64,000 nt of DNA, from the NCBI RefSeq assembly GCF_003018115.1, contig NZ_CP027457.1. One strand, 5' to 3'. This document shows, in pieces, positions 13,305-56,920 of this stretch; the first letter of the stretch is position 1; each line of letters begins with the position of its first letter. A program made the position numbers and the translations under genes. Below the pieces are notes generated by a model, which worked only from the letters and a program-made list of their open reading frames with translations, made no database searches and was not told the origin of the DNA. Origin of the DNA: Escherichia coli (lineage in GTDB: Bacteria; Pseudomonadota; Gammaproteobacteria; Enterobacterales; Enterobacteriaceae).

Positions 13305-14153
13305 TTATTGCCGAACCAGTCTTGTGGTCGATGGGACAAAATCGCTATTACTGCGCCACGGGTTAATGTCCAGACCGCCACGACGGGTATAACGTGCGTA
13401 AACGCTCAATTTCTCTGGCTGGCAGAAGCGTAACAGGTCATTAAAGAGGCGTTCCACGCACTGTTCGTGGAACTCGTTGTGATGGCGGAAAGAGACCAGG
13501 TAACGCAGCAGTTTTTCTCTGTCAATTTGGCGTCCACGATACTGAATTTGGATCGAACCCCAATCTGGTTGATGGGTGATCAGGCAGTTTGATTTCAGCA
13601 GGTGGCTGACGAGCGTCTCTTCCACTACTTTTTCACCACTGGTGGCATTCTCCAGATAGTCAGTAGTGAATTCATAGTTATCGATAGTGATATCCTGGTC
13701 ATCAATGCAAGTGCCATTGAAATGACCTATCGGCTGGCCTTCCAGTTCATCAAGACGATATAACGCCACGCTAACCTTACCCTGAGCGCAAGTGCTTAAG
13801 TCGCGCTCCAGCGTCTGGCGCACCTCATCCCAGTTATTAAAACGCGTCTGGTTAAAACTGTTGAGATAGAGCTTAAAACTCTTCGACTCAATCAGATTTA
13901 CGCTGGTGTAATCAAGTTCAACATGACCGACAGCGACCTGCGGCAAACCTTTCGCATTCAGCCAGGAAAGTTCATACAGCGTCCAGATATCCGTACCGTG
14001 AAAAGGCAGGTTATCCGCTTTCAGACCCAGCGGGTCGCGATTCAGGCTGCGTGGAACGCCTTGCAGTAGGCTGGCGTCATAGGTATCCCGGTAATCGGTT
14101 GATTTTCCAAGAGTCAGGCCCGCAAGTGCCTGATGGTTTGCATAAGAAGACAT
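13305..14153 (-). CDS. queF: NADPH-dependent 7-cyano-7-deazaguanine (preQ0) reductase
   Basis: 282-aa [24 protein letters not shown]... Confidence 0.9.
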
Positions 14154-14220
14154 GTTTCACCGTCATAAACCAGATAAACTAAACGACAAGTGTATCTGGT
14201 TTAAGTGAAGAGAGAAATTA

Positions 14221-14766
14221 GTGGACGATTTGACCGCACAAGCCCTGAAAGATTTTACTGCACGCTACTGCGATGCGTGGCATGAAGAGCATAAAAGCTG
14301 GCCGTTAAGTGAGGAACTGTACGGCGTTCCTTCACCGTGCATTATTTCAACTACTGAAGATGCCGTATACTGGCAACCCCAGCCGTTTACCGGGGAACAA
14401 AATGTAAACGCGGTTGAACGCGCTTTTGATGTTGTGATACAACCCACAATTCATACCTTTTATACGACTCAGTTTGCCGGGGATATGCACGCGCAGTTTG
14501 GCGATATCAAACTGACATTGCTGCAAACCTGGAGTGAAGACGACTTCCGTCGGGTGCAGGAAAATCTGATTGGTCATCTGGTGACTCAGAAAAGGCTAAA
14601 ACTGCCACCCACGCTATTTATCGCGACGCTGGAAGAAGAGTTAGAGGTCATCTCGGTGTGTAATCTCTCCGGTGAAGTGTGCAAAGAGACGCTGGGAACA
14701 CGTAAACGGACGCATTTAGCCTCAAATCTTGCGGAATTCCTTAATCAACTTAAGCCTCTTCTGTAA
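14221..14766 (+). CDS. syd: SecY-interacting protein Syd
   Basis: 181-aa [27 protein letters not shown]... Confidence 0.9.
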
Positions 14767-14985
14767 TCCAAATACCCCATCTGGTTGTGAGAGATCTCTT
14801 ACAGACTCTGTAGGAGATCGCCAGGAAATAAGCGAATACTTAAAAAGATAAGAATCGTTATTTTCATTTAAAATCAAAATGTTGATTGTTAATTCTTAAC
14901 TTTCATATGAAATTTTCCTTAAGGCATTGTCTGTAAGCGCCTTGTAAGACTTCGCGAAAAAGACGATTCTATCTTCGTCGACAGG

Positions 14986-15343
14986 GAGTCAGACAACGAA
15001 GTGAACATCAGGATGATGACACTTCTGCAGGACACACCAGGATGGTGTTTCAGGGAAAGGCTTCTGGATGAAGCGAAGAGGATGACGCAGGACGCGTTAA
15101 AGGACACCTCCAGGATGGAGAATGAGAACCGGTCAGGATGATTCGGTGGGTCAGGAAGGCCAGGGACACTTCAGGATGAAGTATCACATCGGGGTGGTGT
15201 GAGCAGGAAGCAATAGTTCAGGATGAACGATTGGCCGCAAGGCCAGAGGAAAAGTTGTCAAGGATGAGCAGGGAGCAACAAAAGTAGCTGGAATGCTGCG
15301 AAACGAACCGGGAGCGCTGTGAATACAGTGCTCCCTTTTTTTA
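14986..15343 (+). ncRNA. csrB: CsrB small RNA (CsrA-sequestering)
   Basis: ORF-free segment with about 18 CAGGA(T/A)G / AGGA motifs spaced 10-25 nt apart, ending in hairpin GGAGCGCTGTGAATACAGTGCTCCC plus T8 (15311-15343); lies between syd and yqcC. Confidence 0.9.
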
Positions 15344-15387
15344 TTCCTGCTATCCTTCGCGGCAGTTTTTCTTATTGAGGTTGCTTT

Positions 15388-15717
15388 ATGACCACTCATG
15401 ACCGCGTTCGTCTCCAGTTGCAGACGCTTGAAGCGTTACTGCGTGAACATCAGCACTGGCGAAACGATGAACCCCAGCCGCATCAATTTAATAGTACCCA
15501 ACCGTTCTTTATGGACACCATGGAACCACTGGAGTGGTTGCAGTGGGTGCTGATCCCGCGAATGCACGATTTGTTAAATAACAACCAGCCGTTACCGGGC
15601 GCTTTTGCCGTTGCTCCCTATTATGAAATGGCGCTGGCGACGGACCATCCGCAACGCGCGCTTATTCTGGCTGAGTTGGAAAAACTGGATGCTCTTTTTG
15701 CGGATGATGCGAGCTAA
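15388..15717 (+). CDS. yqcC: DUF446-family protein
   Basis: 109-aa ORF; synteny csrB-yqcC-truC. Confidence 0.8.
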   Translation: MTTHDRVRLQLQTLEALLREHQHWRNDEPQPHQFNSTQPFFMDTMEPLEWLQWVLIPRMHDLLNNNQPLPGAFAVAPYYEMALATDHPQRALILAELEKLDALFADDAS

Positions 15718-16499
15718 TGCTGGAAATACTCTATCAGGATGAATGGCTGGTTGCGGTAAATAAACCCTCCGGCTGGCTGGTTCACCGCAGCTGGCTGGAT
15801 CGCGACGAGAAAGTAGTGGTCATGCAAACCGTGCGTGACCAGATAGGCCAGCATGTTTTTACTGCTCATCGTCTGGACCGACCCACTTCTGGTGTGTTGT
15901 TGATGGGATTATCCAGCGAGGCCGGACGGCTGCTGGCACAACAGTTTGAACAGCACCAAATCCAGAAACGTTACCATGCGATTGTGCGCGGCTGGTTGAT
16001 GGAAGAAGCGGTGCTGGATTATCCACTGGTGGAAGAACTGGACAAAATCGCTGATAAATTTGCCCGCGAAGATAAAGGCCCGCAGCCAGCAGTGACGCAT
16101 TATCGCGGTCTGGCGACCGTAGAAATGCCGGTAGCGACCGGACGTTACCCGACCACGCGCTACGGCCTGGTGGAACTGGAGCCGAAAACCGGACGCAAAC
16201 ATCAGCTTCGCCGACATCTTGCCCATTTGCGTCATCCGATTATTGGCGATAGCAAACATGGCGATTTACGCCAGAATCGCAGCGGTGCTGAGCATTTTGG
16301 CCTTCAGCGCTTAATGCTGCATGCCAGTCAGTTGTCATTGACGCATCCTTTTACTGGCGAGCCGCTGACTATTCACGCGGGCCTGGACGACACCTGGATG
16401 CAGGCGTTATCACAATTTGGCTGGAGCGGTCTGCTTCCTGAAAATGAAAGGGTTGAGTTCAGTGCGCCATCGGGTCAGGATGGAGAGATAAGTTCCTAA
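15717..16499 (+). CDS. truC: tRNA pseudouridine(65) synthase
   Basis: 260-aa [27 protein letters not shown]..., RluA-family motif HRLDRPTSG. Confidence 0.9.
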
Positions 16500-16516
16500 T
16501 CCAGGGAGAAAACGGT

Positions 16517-16966
16517 ATGGCGGAAATTGGTATTTTTGTCGGCACCATGTACGGAAATTCGCTGTTAGTGGCGGAAGAAGCAGAAGCAATTCTGACCGCA
16601 CAGGGCCACAAAGCAACGGTATTTGAAGATCCTGAATTAAGCGACTGGCTGCCCTATCAGGATAAGTATGTTCTGGTGGTTACGTCCACGACCGGGCAGG
16701 GCGACCTTCCTGATAGCATTGTGCCGCTCTTTCAGGGAATCAAAGATAGTCTGGGCTTCCAGCCGAATCTGCGTTATGGCGTGATTGCGCTCGGCGACAG
16801 CAGTTATGTAAATTTCTGCAATGGCGGCAAACAGTTCGATGCCTTGTTGCAGGAACAGAGCGCTCAGCGGGTTGGCGAAATGCTGTTGATTGACGCCAGT
16901 GAGAACCCGGAACCGGAAACGGAATCAAATCTGTGGGTCGAACAGTGGGGCACGCTGTTGTCCTGA
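16517..16966 (+). CDS. yqcA: flavodoxin-like protein
   Basis: 149-aa [26 protein letters not shown]... Confidence 0.85.
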
Positions 16967-17019
16967 TATGTTCAGCGAGCGGTAAATGTCGTTTTAGCGG
17001 TGCTGAATCGAATCTTTTC

Positions 17020-17074
17020 AGGCAAATGCCAGTAAAAACTGCTTCATAGCGCGGATTTTTACTGGCGTTTGCCT
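17020..17074. other. long inverted repeat (19-bp stem AGGCAAATGCCAGTAAAAA / TTTTTACTGGCGTTTGCCT, 17-nt loop)
   Basis: Read directly; 54 bp downstream of yqcA stop; no adjacent T-run on either strand. Confidence 0.6.
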
Positions 17075-17400
17075 GGAGTCAAGCGATCCATTTCATACTC
17101 TTCTTTATTTCTTCGTTTTAACCCTTCCTTTCTTGTTCTTGTTTTCATTTCCGTGAAGTGGATTCCACCGTCCAGGGCTAATGCCAAAATCGGGCCTCAT
17201 TGAACGCATTAATGTTGTGTTGTTGCACGGTGAGCCGCTATGGCGCGCTTTTTATACTGCTATTGCCAGATATAAACACGCGCCGTATTCGGCGAACGAC
17301 CTATAAAAACGGCAAAAAACACCCTACGTCACCTCTGATTTCCTGGCGATGTCGCAGTCCAGAGTGAGCGTGGCTAACGCGAATTTTCAGGAGTGCAACA

Positions 17401-18753
17401 ATGAGTTCTTTAAGTCAGGCTGCGAGCAGTGTGGAAAAACGCACGAATGCTCGTTACTGGATAGTGGTGATGTTGTTTATCGTCACATCCTTCAACTACG
17501 GCGACCGCGCTACGCTTTCTATTGCCGGTTCGGAAATGGCCAAAGATATCGGCCTTGATCCCGTGGGAATGGGCTATGTGTTCTCTGCCTTCTCATGGGC
17601 TTATGTTATCGGGCAGATCCCTGGTGGTTGGTTGCTGGATCGTTTTGGTTCAAAACGCGTCTACTTCTGGTCGATCTTTATCTGGTCGATGTTTACCTTG
17701 CTGCAAGGCTTCGTCGATATCTTTAGTGGATTCGGCATTATCGTTGCCCTGTTTACGCTGCGCTTCCTGGTCGGGCTTGCTGAAGCGCCATCTTTCCCCG
17801 GCAATAGTCGCATTGTTGCGGCCTGGTTTCCGGCGCAGGAAAGGGGAACGGCGGTGTCGATTTTTAACTCCGCTCAATACTTCGCAACGGTGATCTTCGC
17901 GCCGATTATGGGCTGGCTGACGCATGAAGTGGGCTGGTCACACGTCTTTTTCTTTATGGGCGGTCTGGGCATTGTCATCAGCTTTATCTGGTTGAAAGTC
18001 ATCCACGAGCCAAATCAACATCCGGGTGTAAATCAGAAAGAGCTGGAGTACATCGCCGCGGGTGGCGCGCTGATCAATATGGATCAGCAAAACACCAAAG
18101 TTAAAGTGCCGTTCAGCGTGAAGTGGGGGCAGATCAAACAGCTGCTCGGGTCACGGATGATGATCGGCGTTTATATCGGTCAGTACTGTATCAACGCCCT
18201 GACTTACTTTTTCATTACCTGGTTTCCGGTTTATCTGGTGCAGGCGCGTGGGATGTCGATTCTGAAAGCGGGATTTGTGGCTTCCGTTCCGGCGGTTTGC
18301 GGTTTTATCGGCGGTGTGCTGGGTGGGATTATTTCCGACTGGCTGATGCGCCGCACGGGATCGCTGAACATTGCGCGTAAAACACCGATCGTAATGGGCA
18401 TGTTGCTGTCGATGGTGATGGTGTTCTGCAACTACGTCAACGTTGAGTGGATGATCATCGGCTTTATGGCGCTGGCCTTCTTCGGTAAGGGCATCGGGGC
18501 GCTGGGTTGGGCAGTAATGGCAGATACCGCGCCAAAAGAGATCAGCGGTCTTTCCGGTGGCCTGTTCAACATGTTCGGTAACATTTCTGGCATCGTCACG
18601 CCAATCGCAATTGGTTATATCGTTGGCACGACTGGCTCCTTTAATGGGGCGCTCATTTATGTTGGTGTTCATGCCTTAATCGCGGTACTGAGCTACCTGG
18701 TGCTGGTGGGCGATATCAAGCGTATCGAGCTGAAACCTGTCGCGGGGCAATAA
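17401..18753 (+). CDS. gudP: glucarate/galactarate transporter (MFS)
   Basis: 450-aa membrane ORF preceding gudX-gudD. Confidence 0.88.
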
Positions 18754-18754
18754 G

Positions 18755-20095
18755 ATGACGACACAATCCAGTCCTGTTATTACTGATATGAAAGTCATTC
18801 CGGTCGCCGGGCACGACAGCATGTTGCTTAATATTGGTGGGGCGCATAACGCATATTTCACCCGCAATATTGTGCTACTCACCGATAACGCCGGGCATAC
18901 CGGCATTGGTGAAGCGCCAGGCGGAGAGGTGATTTATCAGACATTGGTCGATGCTATTCCGATGGTGCTGGGCCAGGAAGTTGCGCGCCTGAATAAAGTG
19001 GTTCAGCAGGTGCATAAAGGTAATCAGCCAGCCGATTTTGATACCTTCGGCAAAGGTGCCTGGACTTTTGAATTGCGCGTTAATGCCGTGGCGGCGCTGG
19101 AAGCCGCCTTGCTTGACCTGCTAGGTAAGGCGCTGAATGTTCCGGTCTGCGAACTGTTAGGGCCAGGCAAGCAACGCGATGCTATCACCGTCCTCGGTTA
19201 TCTGTTTTATATCGGTGATCGGACTAAAACCGATCTTCCTTATCTGGAAAATACACCGGGCAACCATGAGTGGTATCAGTTGCGACATCAGAAAGCGATG
19301 AACAGCGAAGCCGTTGTGCGTCTGGCGGAAGCCTCACAGGATCGCTATGGCTTTAAAGATTTCAAACTTAAGGGCGGGGTGTTACCTGGCGAGCAAGAAA
19401 TCGACACTGTTCGTGTATTGAAGAAAAGCTTCCCGGATGCGCGGATTACCGTTGATCCCAACGGTGCCTGGCTGCTTGATGAAGCCATTTCTTTGTGCAA
19501 AGGGCTGAATGATGTTCTTACCTATGCCGAAGATCCATGCGGCGCAGAACAGGGCTTCTCCGGACGTGAAGTGATGGCGGAGTTTCGGCGGGCGACCGGC
19601 TTGCCCGTCGCGACTAACATGATCGCCACCAACTGGCGCGAAATGGGTCATGCGGTGATGCTCAATGCGGTAGATATTCCACTTGCCGATCCGCACTTCT
19701 GGACGCTTTCCGGTGCAGTCCGTGTGGCGCAGCTTTGCGACGACTGGGGGCTGACCTGGGGCTGCCATTCTAATAACCATTTCGATATCTCTCTGGCGAT
19801 GTTTACCCATGTGGGCGCGGCGGCACCGGGTAATCCTACCGCTATCGATACCCACTGGATTTGGCAGGAGGGCGACTGTCGCCTGACCCAAAATCCGCTG
19901 GAGATTAAAAACGGAAAAATTGCCGTTCCTGATGCGCCCGGTCTGGGCGTGGAACTGGACTGGGAACAGGTACAAAAGGCACATGAGGCCTATAAACGTC
20001 TGCCTGGCGGTGCGCGTAACGACGCAGGTCCGATGCAGTACCTGATCCCCGGCTGGACCTTTGACCGTAAACGTCCCGTTTTCGGCCGTCATTGA
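18755..20095 (+). CDS. gudX: glucarate dehydratase-related protein (enolase superfamily)
   Basis: 446-aa ORF paralogous to the following gudD ORF. Confidence 0.88.
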
Positions 20096-20115
20096 TTCTG
20101 AAAAAGGACATAAAT

Positions 20116-21456
20116 ATGAGTTCTCAATTTACGACGCCTGTTGTTACTGAAATGCAGGTCATCCCGGTGGCGGGCCATGACAGTATGCTGATGAATCTGA
20201 GTGGTGCACACGCACCGTTCTTCACGCGTAATATTGTGATTATCAAAGATAATTCTGGTCACACTGGCGTAGGGGAAATTCCCGGCGGCGAGAAAATCCG
20301 TAAAACGCTGGAAGATGCGATTCCGCTGGTAGTGGGTAAAACGCTGGGTGAATACAAAAACGTTCTGACGCTGGTGCGTAATACTTTTGCCGATCGTGAT
20401 GCTGGTGGGCGCGGTTTGCAGACATTTGATTTGCGTACCACTATTCATGTAGTTACCGGGATAGAAGCGGCAATGCTGGATCTGCTGGGGCAGCATCTGG
20501 GGGTAAACGTGGCATCGCTGCTGGGCGATGGTCAACAGCGTAGCGAAGTCGAAATGCTCGGTTATCTGTTCTTCGTCGGTAATCGCAAAGCCACACCTCT
20601 GCCGTATCAAAGCCAGCCGGATGACTCATGCGACTGGTATCGCCTGCGTCATGAAGAAGCGATGACGCCGGATGCGGTGGTGCGCCTGGCGGAAGCGGCG
20701 TATGAAAAATATGGCTTCAACGATTTCAAACTGAAAGGCGGTGTACTGGCCGGGGAAGAAGAGGCCGAGTCTATTGTGGCACTGGCGCAACGCTTCCCGC
20801 AGGCGCGTATTACGCTCGATCCTAACGGTGCCTGGTCGCTGAACGAAGCGATTAAAATTGGTAAATACCTGAAAGGTTCGCTGGCTTATGCAGAAGATCC
20901 GTGTGGTGCGGAGCAAGGTTTCTCCGGGCGTGAAGTGATGGCAGAGTTCCGTCGCGCGACTGGCCTGCCGACTGCAACCAATATGATCGCCACCGACTGG
21001 CGGCAGATGGGCCATACGCTCTCGTTACAATCCGTTGATATCCCGCTGGCGGATCCGCATTTCTGGACGATGCAAGGTTCGGTACGTGTGGCGCAAATGT
21101 GCCATGAATTTGGCCTGATCTGGGGTTCACACTCTAACAACCACTTCGATATTTCCCTGGCGATGTTTACCCATGTTGCCGCCGCTGCACCGGGTAAAAT
21201 TACTGCTATTGATACGCACTGGATTTGGCAGGAAGGCAATCAGCGCCTGACCAAAGAACCGTTTGAGATCAAAGGCGGGCTGGTACAAGTGCCAGAAAAA
21301 CCGGGGCTGGGTGTAGAAATCGATATGGATCAGGTGATGAAAGCGCACGAGCTGTATCAGAAACATGGGCTTGGTGCGCGTGACGATGCGATGGGAATGC
21401 AGTACCTGATTCCTGGCTGGACGTTCGATAACAAGCGCCCGTGCATGGTGCGTTAA
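20116..21456 (+). CDS. gudD: D-glucarate dehydratase
   Basis: [27 protein letters not shown]... (start at internal Met of ORF-track entry). Confidence 0.9.
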
Positions 21457-34299: not shown

Positions 34300-34458
34300 A
34301 GATTTTAGTTTGTATAGAGTTATTTTAAATATTTACCTTTTTAATCAATGGATTAAGCGCTCTTTAACATAATGGATGTGTTGTTTGTGTGATACTGTAA
34401 AGTTGGTAGATTGTGACTGGCTTAAAAAATCATTAATTAATAATAGGTTATGTTTAGA
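34300..34458 (+). promoter_or_regulatory. type I-E CRISPR leader (AT-rich, ends ...CTGGCTTAAAAAATCATTAATTAATAATAGGTTATGTTTAGA immediately before repeat 1)
   Basis: AT-rich segment directly upstream of the first full repeat; resembles the E. coli leader as recalled. Confidence 0.65.
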
Positions 34459-35219
34459 GAGTTCCCCGCGCCAGCGGGGATAAACCGAAAATTGGGACGC
34501 TAACTCATGGGTCTGGGTAGAGTTCCCCGCGCCAGCGGGGATAAACCGGGAAAAACGCCTGTGGTTGGGGCTGAACCAGGGAGTTCCCCGCGCCAGCGGG
34601 GATAAACCGTCGGCGCGCTCTCTGTAGAGCGGTTGTGTGATGAGTTCCCCGCGCCAGCGGGGATAAACCGTCGTCGGGTCCGACAGGGGTCGGTTGTTCG
34701 CCGAGTTCCCCGCGCCAGCGGGGATAAACCGGCTTAATAAACGAGGAGAATACCGATGTTTTTAAGTTCCCCGCGCCAGCGGGGATAAACCGTTCTTTTA
34801 ATGGCGTCAGGCCCATTACAGAGCGAGTTCCCCGCGCCAGCGGGGATAAACCGTTTTGACGATTATTCTAAAAGTGAAAATAGCAGAGTTCCCCGCGCCA
34901 GCGGGGATAAACCGCACGCTGGAGTGACCGGGTGGCAGAGCATGACGAGTTCCCCGCGCCAGCGGGGATAAACCGCCATTTCATCATGAACGGCGGAAAT
35001 ATCGTGGGAGTTCCCCGCGCCAGCGGGGATAAACCGGTCAGTTCCCGGTTGATATATATGATGAGCATGAGTTCCCCGCGCCAGCGGGGATAAACCGCGC
35101 AATGGCGCGGCGATTGCTCTCGAGATCAAGTGTTCCCCGCGCCAGCGGGGATAAACCGGGTACAAAAGAGGCCCCATTCTGGCAGGGCTCGAGTTCCCCG
35201 CGCCAGTGGGGATAAACCA
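34459..35219 (+). CRISPR. type I-E CRISPR array, 13 repeats and 12 spacers of 32 nt, repeat GAGTTCCCCGCGCCAGCGGGGATAAACCG
   Basis: Repeats start at 34459, 34520, 34581, 34642, 34703, 34764, 34825, 34886, 34947, 35008, 35069, 35130, 35191 (61-bp period); variants AAG.. at 34764 and GTG.. at 35130; last repeat degenerate (..CCAGTGGGGATAAACCA). Confidence 0.97.
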
Positions 35220-49131: not shown

Positions 49132-50843
49132 TGAGCGAAAAACATCCAGGGCCTTTAGTGGTCGAAGGAAAACTGACAGACGCCGAGCGCATGAAGCTTG
49201 AAAGCAACTACCTGCGCGGCACCATTGCGGAAGATTTAAACGACGGTCTGACCGGCGGCTTTAAGGGCGACAACTTCCTGCTGATCCGCTTCCACGGCAT
49301 GTATCAGCAGGATGACCGCGACATCCGCGCCGAACGTGCTGAACAGAAGCTGGAGCCGCGCCATGCGATGCTGTTGCGCTGTCGTCTGCCGGGTGGGGTG
49401 ATTACCACTAAACAGTGGCAGGCGATCGACAAATTTGCCGGTGAAAACACCATCTATGGCAGCATTCGCCTGACCAACCGCCAGACGTTTCAGTTCCACG
49501 GCATTCTGAAAAAGAACGTCAAACCGGTGCACCAGATGCTGCACTCGGTCGGTCTTGATGCGCTGGCGACAGCTAACGACATGAACCGTAACGTACTCTG
49601 CACCTCGAACCCTTACGAGTCGCAGCTGCACGCAGAAGCGTACGAGTGGGCGAAGAAAATCTCTGAACATCTGCTGCCTCGTACCCGCGCGTATGCGGAG
49701 ATCTGGCTCGATCAGGAAAAAGTCGCCACCACTGATGAAGAACCGATCCTCGGCCAGACTTACCTGCCGCGTAAATTCAAAACCACGGTAGTGATCCCGC
49801 CACAGAACGATATCGATCTGCACGCCAACGACATGAACTTCGTGGCGATCGCCGAAAACGGCAACCTGGTGGGCTTTAACCTGCTGGTGGGCGGTGGGCT
49901 TTCCATCGAACACGGCAACAAGAAAACCTACGCCCGCACCGCGAGTGAGTTTGGCTATCTGCCGCTGGAGCATACGCTGGCAGTGGCGGAAGCAGTCGTG
50001 ACAACTCAGCGTGACTGGGGTAACCGAACCGATCGTAAAAATGCCAAAACCAAATACACGCTGGAGCGCGTGGGGGTTGAGACGTTTAAAGCGGAAGTGG
50101 AGCGTCGCGCGGGGATCAAGTTCGAGCCGATTCGCCCGTATGAGTTTACCGGACGCGGAGATCGTATTGGCTGGGTTAAGGGCATTGATGATAACTGGCA
50201 CCTGACGCTGTTTATCGAAAATGGTCGCATCCTTGATTATCCGGGGCGTCCGCTGAAAACCGGCCTGCTGGAGATCGCGAAGATCCACAAAGGTGATTTC
50301 CGCATTACGGCGAACCAGAATCTGATCATCGCCGGTGTGCCGGAAAGCGAGAAAGCGAAGATCGAGAAGATCGCCAAAGAGAGCGGGTTAATGAATGCCG
50401 TCACGCCGCAGCGTGAAAACTCAATGGCCTGCGTCTCGTTCCCGACTTGCCCGCTGGCGATGGCGGAAGCGGAGCGTTTCCTGCCGTCTTTTATCGACAA
50501 CATCGATAATTTAATGGCGAAACATGGTGTCAGCGATGAGCATATCGTGATGCGTGTAACAGGCTGCCCGAACGGTTGTGGTCGCGCGATGCTGGCGGAA
50601 GTGGGCCTGGTGGGTAAAGCGCCGGGTCGCTACAACCTGCATCTTGGCGGCAACCGTATTGGGACACGTATCCCACGGATGTATAAAGAAAACATCACCG
50701 AGCCGGAAATCCTGGCGTCGCTTGATGAACTGATAGGGCGCTGGGCGAAAGAGCGCGAAGCGGGTGAAGGCTTCGGCGACTTTACGGTGCGTGCGGGCAT
50801 CATTCGCCCGGTGCTCGATCCGGCGCGCGATTTGTGGGATTAA
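49131..50843 (+). CDS. cysI: sulfite reductase [NADPH] hemoprotein beta subunit
   Basis: 570-aa [25 protein letters not shown]... Confidence 0.93.
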
Positions 50844-50857
50844 CCATCAGCCCGGTC

Positions 50858-50896
50858 TTGTAGGCCTGATAAGACACGTGAGCGTCGCATCAGGCA
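50858..50896. repeat. REP element between cysI and cysH
   Basis: TTGTAGGCCTGATAAGACACGTGAGCGTCGCATCAGGCA read directly. Confidence 0.6.
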
Positions 50897-50916
50897 AGGC
50901 AAACAGTGAGGAATCT

Positions 50917-51651
50917 ATGTCCAAACTCGATCTAAACGCCCTGAACGAACTGCCGAAGGTAGATCGCATTCTGGCGCTGGCGGAAACTAACGCCCAACTG
51001 GAAAAACTGGACGCTGAAGGCCGCGTAGCCTGGGCGCTGGATAATCTGCCCGGTGAATATGTGCTTTCTTCCAGCTTCGGCATTCAGGCGGCGGTGAGCC
51101 TGCATCTGGTGAATCAGATTCGCCCGGATATTCCAGTGATCCTCACCGATACCGGTTACTTGTTCCCGGAAACCTACCGCTTTATTGACGAGTTAACGGA
51201 CAAACTCAAGCTCAACCTGAAAGTGTACCGTGCTACCGAAAGCGCAGCCTGGCAGGAAGCACGCTACGGAAAACTGTGGGAGCAGGGCGTTGAAGGCATT
51301 GAAAAGTACAATGACATCAACAAAGTCGAACCGATGAACCGGGCGCTGAAAGAACTTAACGCGCAAACGTGGTTTGCTGGCCTGCGCCGCGAACAATCCG
51401 GCAGCCGCGCCAATTTACCGGTGCTGGCAATTCAGCGTGGCGTATTTAAAATGCTGCCGATTATCGACTGGGATAACCGAACGATATATCAGTATCTGCA
51501 AAAGCATGGCCTGAAATATCACCCATTATGGGACGAAGGATATTTATCGGTGGGCGATACCCATACAACCCGTAAATGGGAACCCGGCATGGCGGAAGAA
51601 GAAACGCGTTTCTTTGGCTTAAAAAGGGAATGTGGGTTACACGAAGGGTAA
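50917..51651 (+). CDS. cysH: phosphoadenosine phosphosulfate (PAPS) reductase
   Basis: ORF from [23 protein letters not shown]...; upstream extension in ORF track rejected. Confidence 0.92.
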
Positions 51652-51915
51652 ATATTGCCGGATAAATTAAACGCCTCTGTCAGAAATGATGGGGGCGTTT
51701 TTATTTTGCGAGCAGCATTCCTGATTTTAAACGTGAACGCCGCTGGAAGAATTATCAGGTATAGAATGGCGTCGGGTGCTTGAGGCTGTCTGGCGTTAAG
51801 CATTCGCGAGGTTCCAGATGGACAAAAGCCCCAGGCGATATTTCTATCAACCTGAGGCTTACGTTCGAACCCAAACAATTCGAATGTTAGTCTCTTCTTT
51901 GCAGGGAGGCAAGAC

Positions 51916-52068
51916 ATGCTGACAAAATATGCCCTTGTGGCAATCATCGTACTGTGTTGTACAGTACTGGGATTCACGCTGATGGTAGGTGACTCGTTGT
52001 GTGAGTTGAGTATCAGAGAACGTGGTATGGAGTTTAAGGCAGTTCTCGCTTACGAATCGAAGAAGTAG
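51916..52068 (+). CDS. Hok/Gef-family type I toxin (50 aa)
   Basis: [50 protein letters not shown]: one TM helix plus conserved SLCEL...AYES signature; RBS GGGAGG at 51904-51909; a 34-codon upstream ORF (51818-51922) ends overlapping the start codon. Confidence 0.75.
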
Positions 52069-52261
52069 CCACCACGCGGGGGTAAAACCCCGCGTACTGA
52101 ATTGTGATGGTTTGGTCTCCTGCACCCTTTTTTAAAATTTATATTTTTTATGTGAATATATAGTCTCTATTTATTATTATGAATTTCAAATGAAAATCAT
52201 TAATTTATTCATAATGTAAATGTTTTATTGGCTGATATATATCACAGATAATTTTTAAAAT

Positions 52262-54358
52262 ATGCGTAAATATCCTTTAAGTTTACTGAAGGATAAAAAT
52301 ATTGTGACTTTTTTTGATTTCTGGGGAAAAACCCGACGCGGCGAGAAAGACGGGGGCGACGACTATCACCTTCTTTGCTGGCATTCGCTGGATGTAGCCG
52401 CGATGGGCTATTTAATGGTTAAAAGAAATTGCTTCGGGCTGGCTGATTATTTTCGTCAATTAGGGATTTCTGACAAGGAACAGGCGGCTCAATTTTTCGC
52501 CTGGTTGCTGTGCTGGCACGATATTGGAAAATTTGCCCGCTCTTTTCAACAACTTTACCTGCCCCCTGAACTCAAGATTCAGGAAAGTGCCAGAAAAAAT
52601 TACGAAAAAATCTCTCATTCAACGCTGGGCTACTGGTTGTGGAATCATTATTTAAGTGAATGTCAGGAGTTACTTCCTTCATCTTCGCTCTCTCCGCGCA
52701 AACTTAGGCGAGTGATAGAAATGTGGATGCCCGTGACGACAGGGCATCATGGTCGGCCCCCTGATCGTATGGATGAATTGGATAATTTTCTGCCTGAAGA
52801 CAAAGCTGCAGCACGAGATTTTCTCCTTGAAATCAAACCACTGTTTCCGCTCATAGAGATCCCCGCATTCTGGGATGATGATGAGGGCATTGAACTTATA
52901 AAACACCTTTCCTGGTATATCTCTGCAACCGTCGTGCTCGCAGACTGGACGGGTTCGTCAACGCGATTTTTTCCACGCGTCGCACACCCAATGGATATTA
53001 AAGGTTACTGGCAGAAAACTTTAATTCAGGCTCAAAACGCCTTAACCGTCTTTCCTCTAAAAGCAAAAGTCGCGCCTTTCAACGGAATTAATACGCTGTT
53101 TCCTTTTATTGAGAATCCGACACCGTTACAGCAAAAGGTGCTGGATCTGGATATCAGCCAGCAAGGACCGCAGTTATTTATTCTGGAAGATGTGACTGGC
53201 GCAGGTAAAACAGAAGCGGCGCTTATCCTGGCGCACAGGTTGATAGCTGCGGGGAAAGCTCAGGGGCTGTTTTTTGGTCTGCCAACAATGGCAACGGCCA
53301 ATGCCATGTACGATCGGCTGGTCAAAACCTGGCTTGCTTTCTATTCGCCAGAATCCCGCCCCAGCCTGGTGCTGGCACATAGTGCCCGCACATTAATGGA
53401 CCGCTTTAATGAATCACTCTGGTCTGGTGATTTAGTCGGGTCAGAAGAACCGGATGAACAAACGTTCAGTCAGGGATGTGCGGCCTGGTTTGCCGACAGT
53501 AACAAGAAGGCGTTGCTGGCTGAAATTGGCGTCGGCACGCTGGATCAGGCGATAATGGCGGTGATGCCGTTCAAACATAATAATCTGCGGCTTCTGGGGC
53601 TGAGTAACAAAATCCTGCTGGCTGATGAGATCCACGCCTGTGACGCTTACATGTCGTGCATTCTTGAAGGGTTGATCGAGCGGCAGGCGCGTGGCGGAAA
53701 CAGCGTTATTTTGCTTTCTGCCACGTTATCTCAACAGCAGCGCGACAAACTCGTCGCTGCCTTTGCGCGGGGTACAGAGGGCCAGCAAGAAGCTCCGTTC
53801 CTGGAAAAGGATGATTACCCCTGGCTGACGCATGTCACGAAATCCGATGTGAACTCACACCGGGTAGCGACGCGCAAAGACGTTGAGCGTAGCGTCAGCG
53901 TGGGTTGGCTTCATAGTGAACAAGAGTGTATTGCGCGTATCGAATCGGCGGTAAGTCAGGGGAAATGCATCGCCTGGATCCGGAATTCTGTCGATGACGC
54001 TATTAAGGTTCATCGTCAGCTGCTTGCCCGCGGCGTCATTCCTGCTTCCAGCCTTTCACTTTTTCATAGCCGCTTTGCTTTTAGCGATCGCCAGCGAATT
54101 GAAACGGAAACGCTGGCACGCTTTGGTAAATATTGTAGTTTACAGAGAGCGTCGCAAGTCATTGTTTGTACACAAGTAATTGAGCAAAGCGTGGATATTG
54201 ACCTGGACGAAATGATCTCCGACCTGGCCCCTGTTGATTTGCTGATTCAGCGAGCAGGACGATTACAGCGGCATATCCGCGATATTAATGGTCAGTTAAA
54301 GCGTGACGTGTTCCCCGCGCCAGCGGGGATAAACCGGGTACACGGATATTCTGTCTAA
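52262..54358 (+). pseudogene. cas3: cas3 (type I-E), truncated at its 3' end: about 682 codons of Cas3 fused in frame to a CRISPR repeat at 54307/54308
   Basis: HD motifs (HSLDVAAM, WHDIGKF), Walker A (TGAGKTEAA), DEIH box (LADEIHACD), motif VI (QRAGRLQRH); the final 17 ORF codons (VFPAPAGINRVHGYSV) translate repeat and spacer. Confidence 0.85.
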
Positions 54359-54702
54359 AAGTTAACTAGTGTTCCCCGCGCCAGCGGGGATAAACCGACT
54401 GATAACGCCGGAGCCTTCTTTTTCAGCAAGTGTTCCCCGCGCCAGCGGGGATAAACCGAGGTTGACGTTGATTTTGTTCGTTATGTTGCCGTGTTCCCCG
54501 CGCCAGCGGGGATAAACCGACCTCGACAATGACACGGGCGCGAAAACAATCGTGTTCCCCGCGCCAGCGGGGATAAACCGTCGGTGGCTGGATTGAAAAA
54601 GAAGATAATCTGGTGTTCCCCGCGTCAGCGGGGATAAACCGGGCGCACTGGATGCGATGATGGATATCACTTAGAATTCCCCGCCCCTGCGGTAGAACTC
54701 CC
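54308..54702 (+). CRISPR. type I-E CRISPR array, 7 repeats and 6 spacers, repeat GTGTTCCCCGCGCCAGCGGGGATAAACCG; no leader
   Basis: Repeats start at 54308, 54369, 54430, 54491, 54552, 54613 (GCGTCAG variant) and 54674 (degenerate terminal repeat); spacers 32 nt. Confidence 0.96.
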
Positions 54703-54722: not shown

Positions 54723-55760
54723 TCAAGACGCCTTCGCCAGCTCCTTCACCAGCGGTAGCATTATCCGCATAACATCACGGCAGCGACGTTCTATTCTTCC
54801 AGGAAGTGCCTTATCAATATGTTGTTGATTATCCAGTCTTACGTCATGCCAGCTATTTCCCGCCGGGAAGGCAGGTGTTTTTGCGCGTTGCTGATAACCA
54901 TCCTTATTCCCAAGATTCCAGTTAGTCGCTTCCACCGAAAGTACAGCAATGCCCGCTTTGTCGAATATTTCTGCGTCATTACAACACCCAGTGCCTTTCG
55001 GATAATTTTTATTCAAACCCGGATTGGTCGTTGCGGCTATTCCGTGACTGCGCGCAATTGCCAGCGCCCTGTCGCGCGTTAATTTCCTTACTGCTTCAGG
55101 GGTTTTTACACCGCTGTTGAAATACAATTTATCGCCAACAATTAAGTTATCGAGATTAATCACCAGCAGCGTATTTTTCTTTTCGGTGTCACTCATCCGC
55201 TTGAGTAAATTCTCAGCGCCTAATTTCCCTTCCTCTTCGCCGCTGGTCGCCACAAATCGAATACCATACTCGGTAGGCGTATTTTTCAGGCGTTCTGCCA
55301 ATTCCAGCATGACACCTAAACCTGCGGCGTTATCATCCATTCCTTGTAACGTCAGCCCGCCGAGATTGGCATCGGCGTCAGCATCGCTCAGCGGGGCGTA
55401 AGTATCCAGATGCGCCATAATGATGATCTGCTGCGGCGCTTTGCCTTCATGAGCGGCAATCACCGTACTTCCTGTCACGTTATGCCAGTTCTTGCGATTA
55501 TCGCGGGCGGTATAAATATACCGACTATTAAATGTCCGAATATCACTGCGATAACCCATTTGCTGAAACTGTTGGCGAATATAATCGGCAGATAACATTT
55601 CTGCAGGAGTTCCGGTCATGCGTCCCGGAAAGAAAGTAGCAATATGTCGTGCCTGAGTATTAGCAAAATCGCCAGGTTTAGGTGACGAGGCGTGTACGGG
55701 GAGAATAAAGCATACGCCGAGCGCCAGGGCAGCGGTACGGTGGCGCAATGCGGAAAACAT
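54723..55760 (-). CDS. iap: alkaline phosphatase isozyme conversion aminopeptidase
   Basis: 345-aa ORF MFSALRHRTAALALGVCFILPVHA... Confidence 0.88.
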   Translation of the reverse strand: MFSALRHRTAALALGVCFILPVHASSPKPGDFANTQARHIATFFPGRMTGTPAEMLSADYIRQQFQQMGYRSDIRTFNSRYIYTARDNRKNWHNVTGSTVIAAHEGKAPQQIIIMAHLDTYAPLSDADADANLGGLTLQGMDDNAAGLGVMLELAERLKNTPTEYGIRFVATSGEEEGKLGAENLLKRMSDTEKKNTLLVINLDNLIVGDKLYFNSGVKTPEAVRKLTRDRALAIARSHGIAATTNPGLNKNYPKGTGCCNDAEIFDKAGIAVLSVEATNWNLGNKDGYQQRAKTPAFPAGNSWHDVRLDNQQHIDKALPGRIERRCRDVMRIMLPLVKELAKAS

Positions 55761-56011
55761 AGTGAGTCCTTAAATACCATGCAAATTTTTTTACCGCCAT
55801 AGTATGAAACTGCCGCTGCGCTAAAACAATTTCAAATATTCCTAAACGCCCGAAATCCGGTGCCTTAAGCACTTTTTGATATTAGCTTTGCCAAATCGTT
55901 ATTCCGTTAAGGAACTACTCATTCTAATTGGTAATTTCATTCGTTCTCTTACGCTCCCTATAGTCGAAACATCTGATGGCAAGAAAATAGCGGTATTGCA
56001 AAGGAACGGTT

Positions 56012-56920
56012 ATGGATCAAATACGACTTACTCACCTGCGGCAACTGGAGGCGGAAAGCATCCACATTATTCGCGAGGTGGCGGCAGAATTCTCAAATCC
56101 GGTGATGCTCTACTCTATCGGTAAAGATTCCAGCGTCATGCTGCATCTGGCGCGCAAGGCGTTTTATCCAGGTACGCTGCCTTTCCCGTTGCTGCATGTC
56201 GATACCGGCTGGAAATTCCGCGAGATGTATGAGTTCCGCGATCGTACGGCGAAAGCCTACGGCTGCGAGCTGCTGGTGCATAAAAATCCGGAAGGCGTGG
56301 CGATGGGGATTAATCCATTCGTGCACGGCAGCGCGAAACATACCGATATTATGAAAACTGAAGGCCTGAAGCAGGCGCTGAATAAATACGGTTTTGATGC
56401 CGCCTTCGGTGGTGCGCGCCGCGACGAAGAGAAATCCCGTGCTAAAGAGCGTATCTACTCTTTCCGTGATCGCTTCCATCGCTGGGACCCGAAAAATCAG
56501 CGCCCGGAGCTGTGGCACAACTATAACGGGCAGATTAACAAAGGCGAAAGCATCCGCGTTTTCCCGCTCTCTAACTGGACCGAGCAGGATATCTGGCAAT
56601 ACATCTGGCTGGAAAATATCGACATTGTGCCGTTGTATCTCGCTGCGGAACGTCCGGTTCTGGAACGCGACGGTATGTTGATGATGATTGATGACAACCG
56701 TATCGACCTGCAACCGGGCGAAGTGATTAAAAAACGGATGGTGCGTTTCCGTACGCTGGGCTGCTGGCCGCTGACCGGTGCGGTGGAGTCAAATGCACAA
56801 ACACTGCCGGAGATCATCGAAGAGATGCTGGTTTCTACCACCAGTGAACGTCAGGGCCGCGTGATTGACCGCGACCAGGCGGGGTCTATGGAGCTGAAAA
56901 AACGTCAGGGGTATTTTTAA
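56012..56920 (+). CDS. cysD: sulfate adenylyltransferase subunit 2
   Basis: 302-aa [30 protein letters not shown]... Confidence 0.93.

Follow-up and report, generated by a model that had tools for sequence, protein, structure and literature searches.

Type I-E CRISPR-Cas systems require Cascade together with full-length Cas3 for interference, Cas6e for crRNA maturation, and Cas1-Cas2 plus the leader for adaptation. Loci that have lost most of these components have long been known. Touchon and Rocha (2010, PMC2886076) described 'Ecoli subtype' loci with a cas3 pseudogene alone in Shigella flexneri and in Salmonella SL92/SPB7 and found that arrays shrink after cas loss, and Geue et al. (2017, Front Microbiol, PMC5359238) reported a cas3/CRISPR2.1 deletion in atypical EPEC O156:H8, for which they proposed no mechanism. 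Loss of the cas-F operon of E. coli has left a merged CRISPR4.1-2 array, a single cassette implying the absence of cas genes in the I-F locus (PMC3903273); by our own inference, recombination between the two co-oriented flanking arrays could remove the operon in that case. K-12-type (cas-E2) loci carry IS-mediated deletions that truncate cas3 and remove the Cascade genes, with an IS1 or IS3-family element at the junction.

The 64-kb stretch of E. coli DNA analyzed here (the window) contains a locus of this long-known kind, and its allele has already been annotated by PGAP and published, since it is the deletion reported from O156:H8 (PMC5359238). Strain 13E0767 of that serotype is one of the 11 carriers identified below, and its junction is identical to that of the window. 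The two differ in CRISPR-1 spacer content (17-18-19-39-40-23 in the window and 18-22-38-39-40-23 in 13E0767, in the spacer numbering of this analysis), and a segment of about 12 kb from the CRISPR-II array to cysJ that is deleted in O156:H8 is kept in the window. As in the Shigella flexneri and Salmonella SL92/SPB7 loci, the cas operon is deleted, a cas3 pseudogene lies beside CRISPR1 and the arrays are short, although those loci represent other events in other species. The cas-F loss is similar in that the operon is gone and an orphan array is left, but there is no array upstream of cas3 in the window and the left breakpoints fall in unique cas3 sequence; and unlike the K-12-type deletions, the window has no IS element at its junction.

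The gene order at the CRISPR-I locus is cysH, hok/gef, cas3, array and iap, so a cas3 fragment lies beside CRISPR1 between normal cysH and iap flanks with the other cas genes deleted, as in degraded or orphan loci. The usual left flank, cysH (50917..51651, +, within an ORF at 50764..51651), was positioned from that ORF and the PGAP tables of syntenic loci. The 50-aa ORF at 51916..52068 (+) is a hok/gef-family toxin gene, the usual neighbor upstream of cas3-E1, and a Hok/Gef family protein is annotated at the matching offset in loci L003-L007. The leaderless CRISPR-1 (CRISPR2.1) array (54308..54702, +) consists of six spacers and six repeats (54308-54641, 61-nt spacing, the last repeat with one mismatch) followed by a degenerate terminal repeat at 54674-54702; the number of repeat matches expected in shuffled sequence is 0. 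The usual right flank, iap, is represented by a 345-aa ORF at 54723..55760 (-), and PGAP places iap at the matching offset in L002-L007. A second I-E array, at the CRISPR-II locus (CRISPR2.2-3; 34380..35219, +), contains 13 repeats (34459-35219, 61-nt period) and retains a leader-like AT-rich region with a 14-nt leader match at 34401-34414; this array is also orphaned by the cas gene loss. Both arrays have 29-nt repeats of the type I-E (CRISPR2) type and spacers of 32-33 nt, and the window's 17 spacers yielded no match to the cas operon or to the window itself.

The ORF at 52262..54358 (+) encodes 698 aa and represents the cas-E1 (O157-like) type of E. coli cas3, a variant described by Almendros et al. 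(2014) and Diez-Villasenor et al. (2013). When the intact 899-aa Cas3 of the same variant from strain VTB97420v (L001 12001-14700) was used as the tblastn query, residues 1-682 aligned to 52262-54307 with 99.7% identity and only two substitutions (G109S and M431I), and the alignment ended there, placing the breakpoint at cas3 nt 2046/2047. The initial annotation had read this ORF as a cas3 cut off after the helicase core and fused in frame to a full repeat, and the alignment bears this out, with identity stopping at 54307 and the repeat running from 54308. Its figure of about 16 codons between motif VI and the junction has to be corrected to 11, as 16 is the length of the tail encoded by repeat and spacer; and its size for intact Cas3 (about 890 aa, of which some 200 residues would be gone) was close, the exact figures being 899 aa and 217 residues. 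At 899 aa, the intact variant also shows that a Cas3 ending near residue 680 is not the norm.

The start ATG of the ORF coincides with the cas3 start annotated by PGAP in syntenic genomes. As judged from tblastn, the Pfam and NCBIfam domains and the PGAP label of identical loci, the remnant comprises codons 1-682 of 899 (52262..54307, +) and keeps the HD nuclease (Cas3_HD, residues 21-237) and both RecA-like helicase lobes through motif VI (Cas3-like_C_2, residues 566-672), the motif QRAGRLQRH occupying residues 663-671. It scores above the NCBIfam cut-offs of TIGR01596 (cas3_HD, 91.3 bits, cut-off 43.45) and TIGR01587 (cas3_core, 222.2 bits, cut-off 102.45) and matches Pfam PF18019 (E = 1e-32) and PF22590 (E = 8.5e-32). 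The full-length equivalog NF007248 (cut-off 569) is non-discriminating here because the intact E1 protein (425), like the remnant (403), scores below it. The protein is not a full-length Cas3: the C-terminal 217 residues are missing, which, going by published Cas3 structures, presumably include the linker and the accessory C-terminal domain. Intact Cas3 aligns to structure 4Q2C up to residue 763, and the part past residue 682 is lost in the remnant; PGAP labels identical loci as a pseudogene, 'incomplete; missing C-terminus'. Downstream of the junction, the chimeric ORF reads through repeat 1 into spacer 1 as a 16-codon tail (54308..54358, +) with the translation VFPAPAGINRVHGYSV, and then stops. 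A protein search with the C-terminal 218 aa of the ORF for truncated Cas3 proteins ending in a repeat-encoded peptide returned fragments only, and the promoter and terminator scan gave only near-background matches.

At the junction itself (54307..54308, +), the window reads ...AAGCGTGACG|TGTTCCCC (in longer form ...AAGCGTGACG|TGTTCCCCGCG), whereas intact cas3 reads ...AAGCGTGACG|GAAAGG at the breakpoint (in longer form ...AAGCGTGACG|GAAAGGACG). The full repeat GTGTTCCCCGCGCCAGCGGGGATAAACCG begins at 54308, and its G at this position is common to both partners, since either codon 683 of cas3 or the repeat could supply it. The cas3 coding sequence thus directly abuts repeat 1, with no leader in front of this array. 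Alignment to intact loci revealed neither filler nor an IS at the junction, where the two partners have no more than 1 nt in common. If the first repeat was the partner, the missing segment corresponds to 14048-20655 of the intact L001 locus (about 6.6 kb) and covers the cas3 tail, cse1, cse2, cas7, cas5, cas6e, cas1, cas2 and the 96-nt leader. In the 64-kb window, tblastn gave a best hit of E = 0.02 over about 30 aa for the Cascade proteins (Cse1, Cse2, Cas7, Cas5 and Cas6e) and no significant match for Cas1 and Cas2, and blastn with the 96-nt CRISPR-1 leader of L001 and the cas3 tail found nothing significant, the leader having no match near 54308. The absence of these genes and of the leader, and their removal in a single several-kb deletion ending exactly at a repeat boundary, had both been put forward in the initial annotation and both hold. 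It had also raised the question of microhomology or a repeat-like sequence inside cas3. Such a stretch, GCGTTCCCCCCC, does occur in intact cas3 12 nt downstream of the breakpoint, but it was rejected as a microhomology partner because recombination there would have kept GGAAAGGACGAGC, which is absent from the window. We are highly confident that the locus is an inert remnant of a type I-E (cas-E1) locus left by one clean deletion of about 6.6 kb.

Among 5,426 complete E. coli genomes, 11 have the identical junction, and they include O169:H41 ETEC, O156:H8 and O8:H8 strains. The carriers are F9792, F8111-1SC3, F6326-C1 and 2014EL-1345-2 of the O169:H41 ETEC group, together with OkiPb01716, LR882990, JNE23-001, 13E0767, 16F5M1D1 (O8:H8), WEC and YZLc4-1. 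The exact 698-aa ORF is present on 40 contigs in public data, and the protein is found in NCBI, for example from TA447 and KTE196. Comparison of the fetched carriers showed 0-3 nt differences across the 2,046 nt of the cas3 remnant, no stop codons, and a distance of 0-3 nt to the closest intact cas3 alleles. The carrier arrays are subsets of one ancestral order, 16-17-18-19-...-21-22-38-39-40-23, whose trailer end is common to all (38-39-40-23 in the nested-subset comparison; the window itself has 39-40-23). The near-identity of the remnants and their common trailer spacers indicate a single recent event followed by spacer losses, and comparison of the nested arrays shows shrinkage through repeat-repeat recombination that did not touch the cas3::repeat junction. 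Two flanking haplotypes occur, which differ by 11-12 SNPs in 850 nt upstream and by 12 in 1,800 nt downstream; homologous recombination has therefore moved the allele or its flanks, so that after the deletion the allele either spread or acquired new flanks.

Two further fusions of cas3 to a repeat were recovered among the other truncations sampled. In GF131 (1 genome), cas3 nt 2168/2169 is joined to repeat base 1 (L008 3242/3243) with one shared G, and in the CX12 lineage (8 genomes), cas3 nt 1470 is joined to repeat base 1 (L019 5471/5472) with no shared base; the CX12-type remnant is older and independent, with a frameshift and an internal stop. No intact relative carrying the leading spacers was found for GF131, whose spacers are unique, or for CX12, where all 8 genomes bearing those spacers have the deletion. 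Gene-gene fusions were represented by cas3(nt 2037)::cas2e, with two variants separated by 8 bp that each show 2-nt microhomology, cas3(nt 1764)::cas7e and cas3(nt 135)::cas1, and the K-12-type (E2) cas3 truncations sampled (n = 3) were all IS-associated, none being a repeat fusion. The right end lies at repeat base 1 in three of the ten sampled junction classes, that is, in all three independent cas3::repeat fusions, and in a spacer, a repeat interior or the leader in none of the ten; two of the three fusions were found with repeat-containing queries, which introduces a bias to array-adjacent events and not to base-exactness. Given landing in the array, the probability of three right ends on one phase of the 61-nt unit is about (1/61)^3.

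Breaks and spacer capture are known to concentrate in the DNA upstream of CRISPR-1. Repeat base 1 is the experimentally defined leader/repeat insertion point of Cas1-Cas2 (PMC3737337), and the non-PAM 3'-OH of the prespacer is joined first at the leader-side end of the repeat, generating a half-site intermediate (PMC10011333). The recurrence of right ends at this base hints at, without proving, deletions that start at the integrase target. The longest carrier array starts with spacer 16, which is also the point above which the arrays diverge in the intact strains W, SE11 and CFSAN061769; as the point of divergence, spacer 16 was once leader-proximal, and for the window type alone the deletion partner can plausibly be taken as repeat 1. 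The strand chemistry is compatible: on the sense strand of cas3, the 3' end of the cas3 sequence is linked to the 5' end of the repeat. We propose that the deletion may have been initiated at the leader-side integration site of Cas1-Cas2, base 1 of repeat 1, because its right end coincides with this site to the base. The event could have followed one of two routes, either half-site (or aborted) integration of a chromosomal 3' end from inside cas3, or a nick or break at the integration site, from which RecBCD would have resected into cas3 before the ends were joined. We give such initiation something approaching an even chance for the window deletion. The wider proposal, that cas operon loss at E. 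coli cas-E1 loci was repeatedly initiated at the Cas1-Cas2 leader-side site, is made tentatively, and it is possible, though we would lean slightly the other way, that the adaptation integrase in effect deleted its own operon and left a base-exact scar.

In adjacent deletions generated by intramolecular transposition of IS elements, Tn10 or Mu, the recognition site of a recombinase fixes one end with base precision. By analogy, the deletions described here would resemble them in combining a fixed end with a variable other end and in requiring no homology, but in those cases the fixed end is the attacking 3'-OH of the element, whereas in our proposal it would be the phosphodiester targeted by the integrase, attacked by a chromosomal end. 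To our knowledge, no experiment links Cas1-Cas2 to such deletions. Several observations weigh against the integrase site: the involvement of Cas1-Cas2 is suggested indirectly, by three events, and leader-proximity of the partner repeat can be inferred for one event only. In addition, the top-strand Chi sites of the intact operon (L001 14531, 15823 and 18563) do not adjoin a breakpoint, and the K-12-type truncations are IS-associated.

The main rival of initiation at the integrase site is a self-spacer route, in which a same-orientation, cas3-derived spacer at the leader end would have recombined with its 32-nt source in cas3, looping out the DNA between them. This route predicts the base-exact spacer/repeat junction seen in three events as well as a partner repeat beside a formerly leader-proximal spacer. 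Moreover, self-spacers are known to be captured preferentially from cas-proximal DNA, and recombination between spacer and protospacer has reportedly been observed in staphylococci by Varble et al. in 2019. In GF131, the last 32 nt of cas3 are preceded by ATG, which fits the preferred acquisition motif of the E1 variant (CWT = AWG), but the same position is occupied by ATA in the window type and GAA in the CX12 type, so only one of the three events has the canonical AWG, a proportion near what chance and the self-spacer hypothesis both predict. Chimeric repeat-spacer-repeat queries for the window and GF131 events uncovered no genome with the predicted cas3-derived spacer in its array (there was no single-piece full-length match, and the top matches were deletion carriers or joined pieces of repeats), and the spacers of the fetched loci gave no match to the cas operon when up to 5-7 mismatches were allowed; we consider this route distinctly unlikely. 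Ordinary illegitimate recombination or replication slippage would involve no CRISPR-specific step, the boundary being set by chance or by hairpin stalling. A microhomology of 0-1 nt is typical of such joins, and the other operon deletions are indeed plain fusions, such as cas3::cas2e with its 2-nt microhomology, or IS-associated. This explanation is nevertheless unlikely in view of the three independent right ends on one base of the 61-nt period, with the probability estimated above; hairpin stalling does not predict base 1 either, for the palindrome of the repeat starts 5 nt inside it.

Alternatives to the main reading, a single deletion that left an inert locus, fare worse still. Misassembly commonly arises at repeat arrays, and the initial annotation had allowed for one across repeats, in which case the Cascade and cas1-cas2 genes would really be present. 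A collapse of reads between repeats cannot join unique cas3 sequence to a repeat, however, and the same junction recurs in the 11 independently assembled complete genomes, which come from different laboratories and countries, as well as on 40 public contigs, and has been independently reported from long-read genomes, all of which makes an assembly artefact exceedingly improbable. It is also conceivable that the truncated Cas3, with its HD domain and helicase core, was kept for a Cascade-independent function: every carrier has an uninterrupted ORF, which retains its own promoter region and the full set of catalytic motifs, and three distinct deletions break cas3 within nt 2037-2047, immediately past the helicase core. 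Yet the allele is too young for an open ORF to be informative on selection, so few SNPs (0-3) having accumulated after the deletion that the frame would be expected to stay open in any case, and the older CX12-type remnant has decayed by frameshift and internal stop. The clustering is partly a matter of ascertainment, as the queries covered nt 1947-2046, and truncations at cas3 nt 135, 1470 and 1764 also exist. We therefore regard a retained function as very unlikely.

An inert remnant is the reading that we retain. The remnant almost certainly does nothing, neither the truncated Cas3 nor either array supporting interference or adaptation, because Cascade, Cas6e, Cas1-Cas2 and the CRISPR-1 leader are missing. 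Any array transcript would need read-through from the cas3 promoter and, from established I-E biology, could not be processed. For this strain, as for the other O169:H41, O156:H8 and O8:H8 carriers, this means that the arrays are usable for typing while conferring no CRISPR immunity. The base-exact recurrence of deletion ends at the integrase target offers a modest, testable lead beyond the published deletion. If general, it would mean that CRISPR adaptation carries a self-inflicted cost and that E. coli lineages have a concrete route to losing their cas genes, and would provide a sequence scar by which such deletions may be recognized in genome surveys.

As in the window, cas3 was also found joined exactly to the first base of a CRISPR repeat in other lineages. 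In GF131, cas3 nt 2168/9 is joined exactly to repeat base 1 (L008:3242-3243), and in CX12 the same repeat base directly follows cas3 nt 1470 (L019:5471-5472), a junction also present in AH04, CX08, AH02, CT01, LHM10-1, XJ5.2 and CP52E. The cas3 truncations of GF131 and CX12 are two more, independent events. The cas3::cas2e fusions, carried by at least 13 genomes among the matches listed, break cas3 at nt 2037 (L009:3091 and L010-L012:3091), just 9-10 nt away from the window's breakpoint. These fusions comprise two junction variants lying 8 bp apart within cas2e, with TA microhomology at each. The closeness of the cas3::cas2e and window breakpoints may be due in part to ascertainment.

Inspection of intact cas3 revealed that a stretch lying 12 nt beyond the window's breakpoint, GCGTTCCCCCCC (L001:14059-14070), resembles the repeat start GTGTTCCCCGCG at 9 of 12 positions, with GTTCCCC matching exactly. 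The window's junction was formed without use of this repeat-like stretch, and its occurrence so near the breakpoint may be a coincidence. The breakpoint region is closely followed by a run of seven C (L001:14062-14068), apparently a site of frameshifting. Public genomes contain a Cas3 variant of 692 aa ending in GKDERSPLNC (P0037), and this variant represents a second route to Cas3 truncation at nearly the same place.

Comparison of the window flanks (51000-52261 and 54723-56500) with five of the loci sharing its junction (L003-L007) revealed that the cas3 remnants of deletion carriers are near-identical, yet lie within two flank haplotypes differing by 11-12 SNPs per side, suggesting that the deletion allele or its flanks were transferred via homologous recombination. 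In F9792, whose junction and array are identical to the window's, the cysH-hok region upstream of cas3 has been replaced by IS186B and ISVsa5 elements (L002:1-1701), which shows that the window comes from another carrier than F9792. In the array of 16F5M1D1 (L005:3121-3881), an insertion of five spacers, 44-48, separates the old spacers 17 and 21, and an adjacent spacer is duplicated in JNE23-001 (38-38, L003) and 13E0725 (36-36, L016); the inserted and duplicated spacers suggest recombination between arrays as well as slippage at repeats.

The second I-E array of the window, CRISPR-II (34380-35219), has 13 repeats, mostly of the GAGTTCC... type, keeps a leader-like region, and is orphaned as well. 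None of its spacers matched the cas operon or the window. Unlike O156:H8, for which Geue et al. (PMC5359238) report a deletion of ~12 kb at the CRISPR-II locus, the window's strain retains this segment. CRISPR-II is also rearranged in the CX12-type lineage (L022:1487-2252 and L023:1487-2252), where a truncated FGGY-family kinase pseudogene comes next after the array and immediately precedes queD, indicating that most genes usually found between this array and queD have been lost.

The closest intact-locus relatives, judged by cas3 allele and trailer spacers, are 13E0725, 2014C-3061 and OkiPb01683. All three carry a frameshifted cas6e (L016:7708-8357, L017:7525-8174 and L018:7617-8266, respectively), and in 2014C-3061 cas3 is frameshifted too, which indicates that decay of this allele group extends beyond the deletion carriers.
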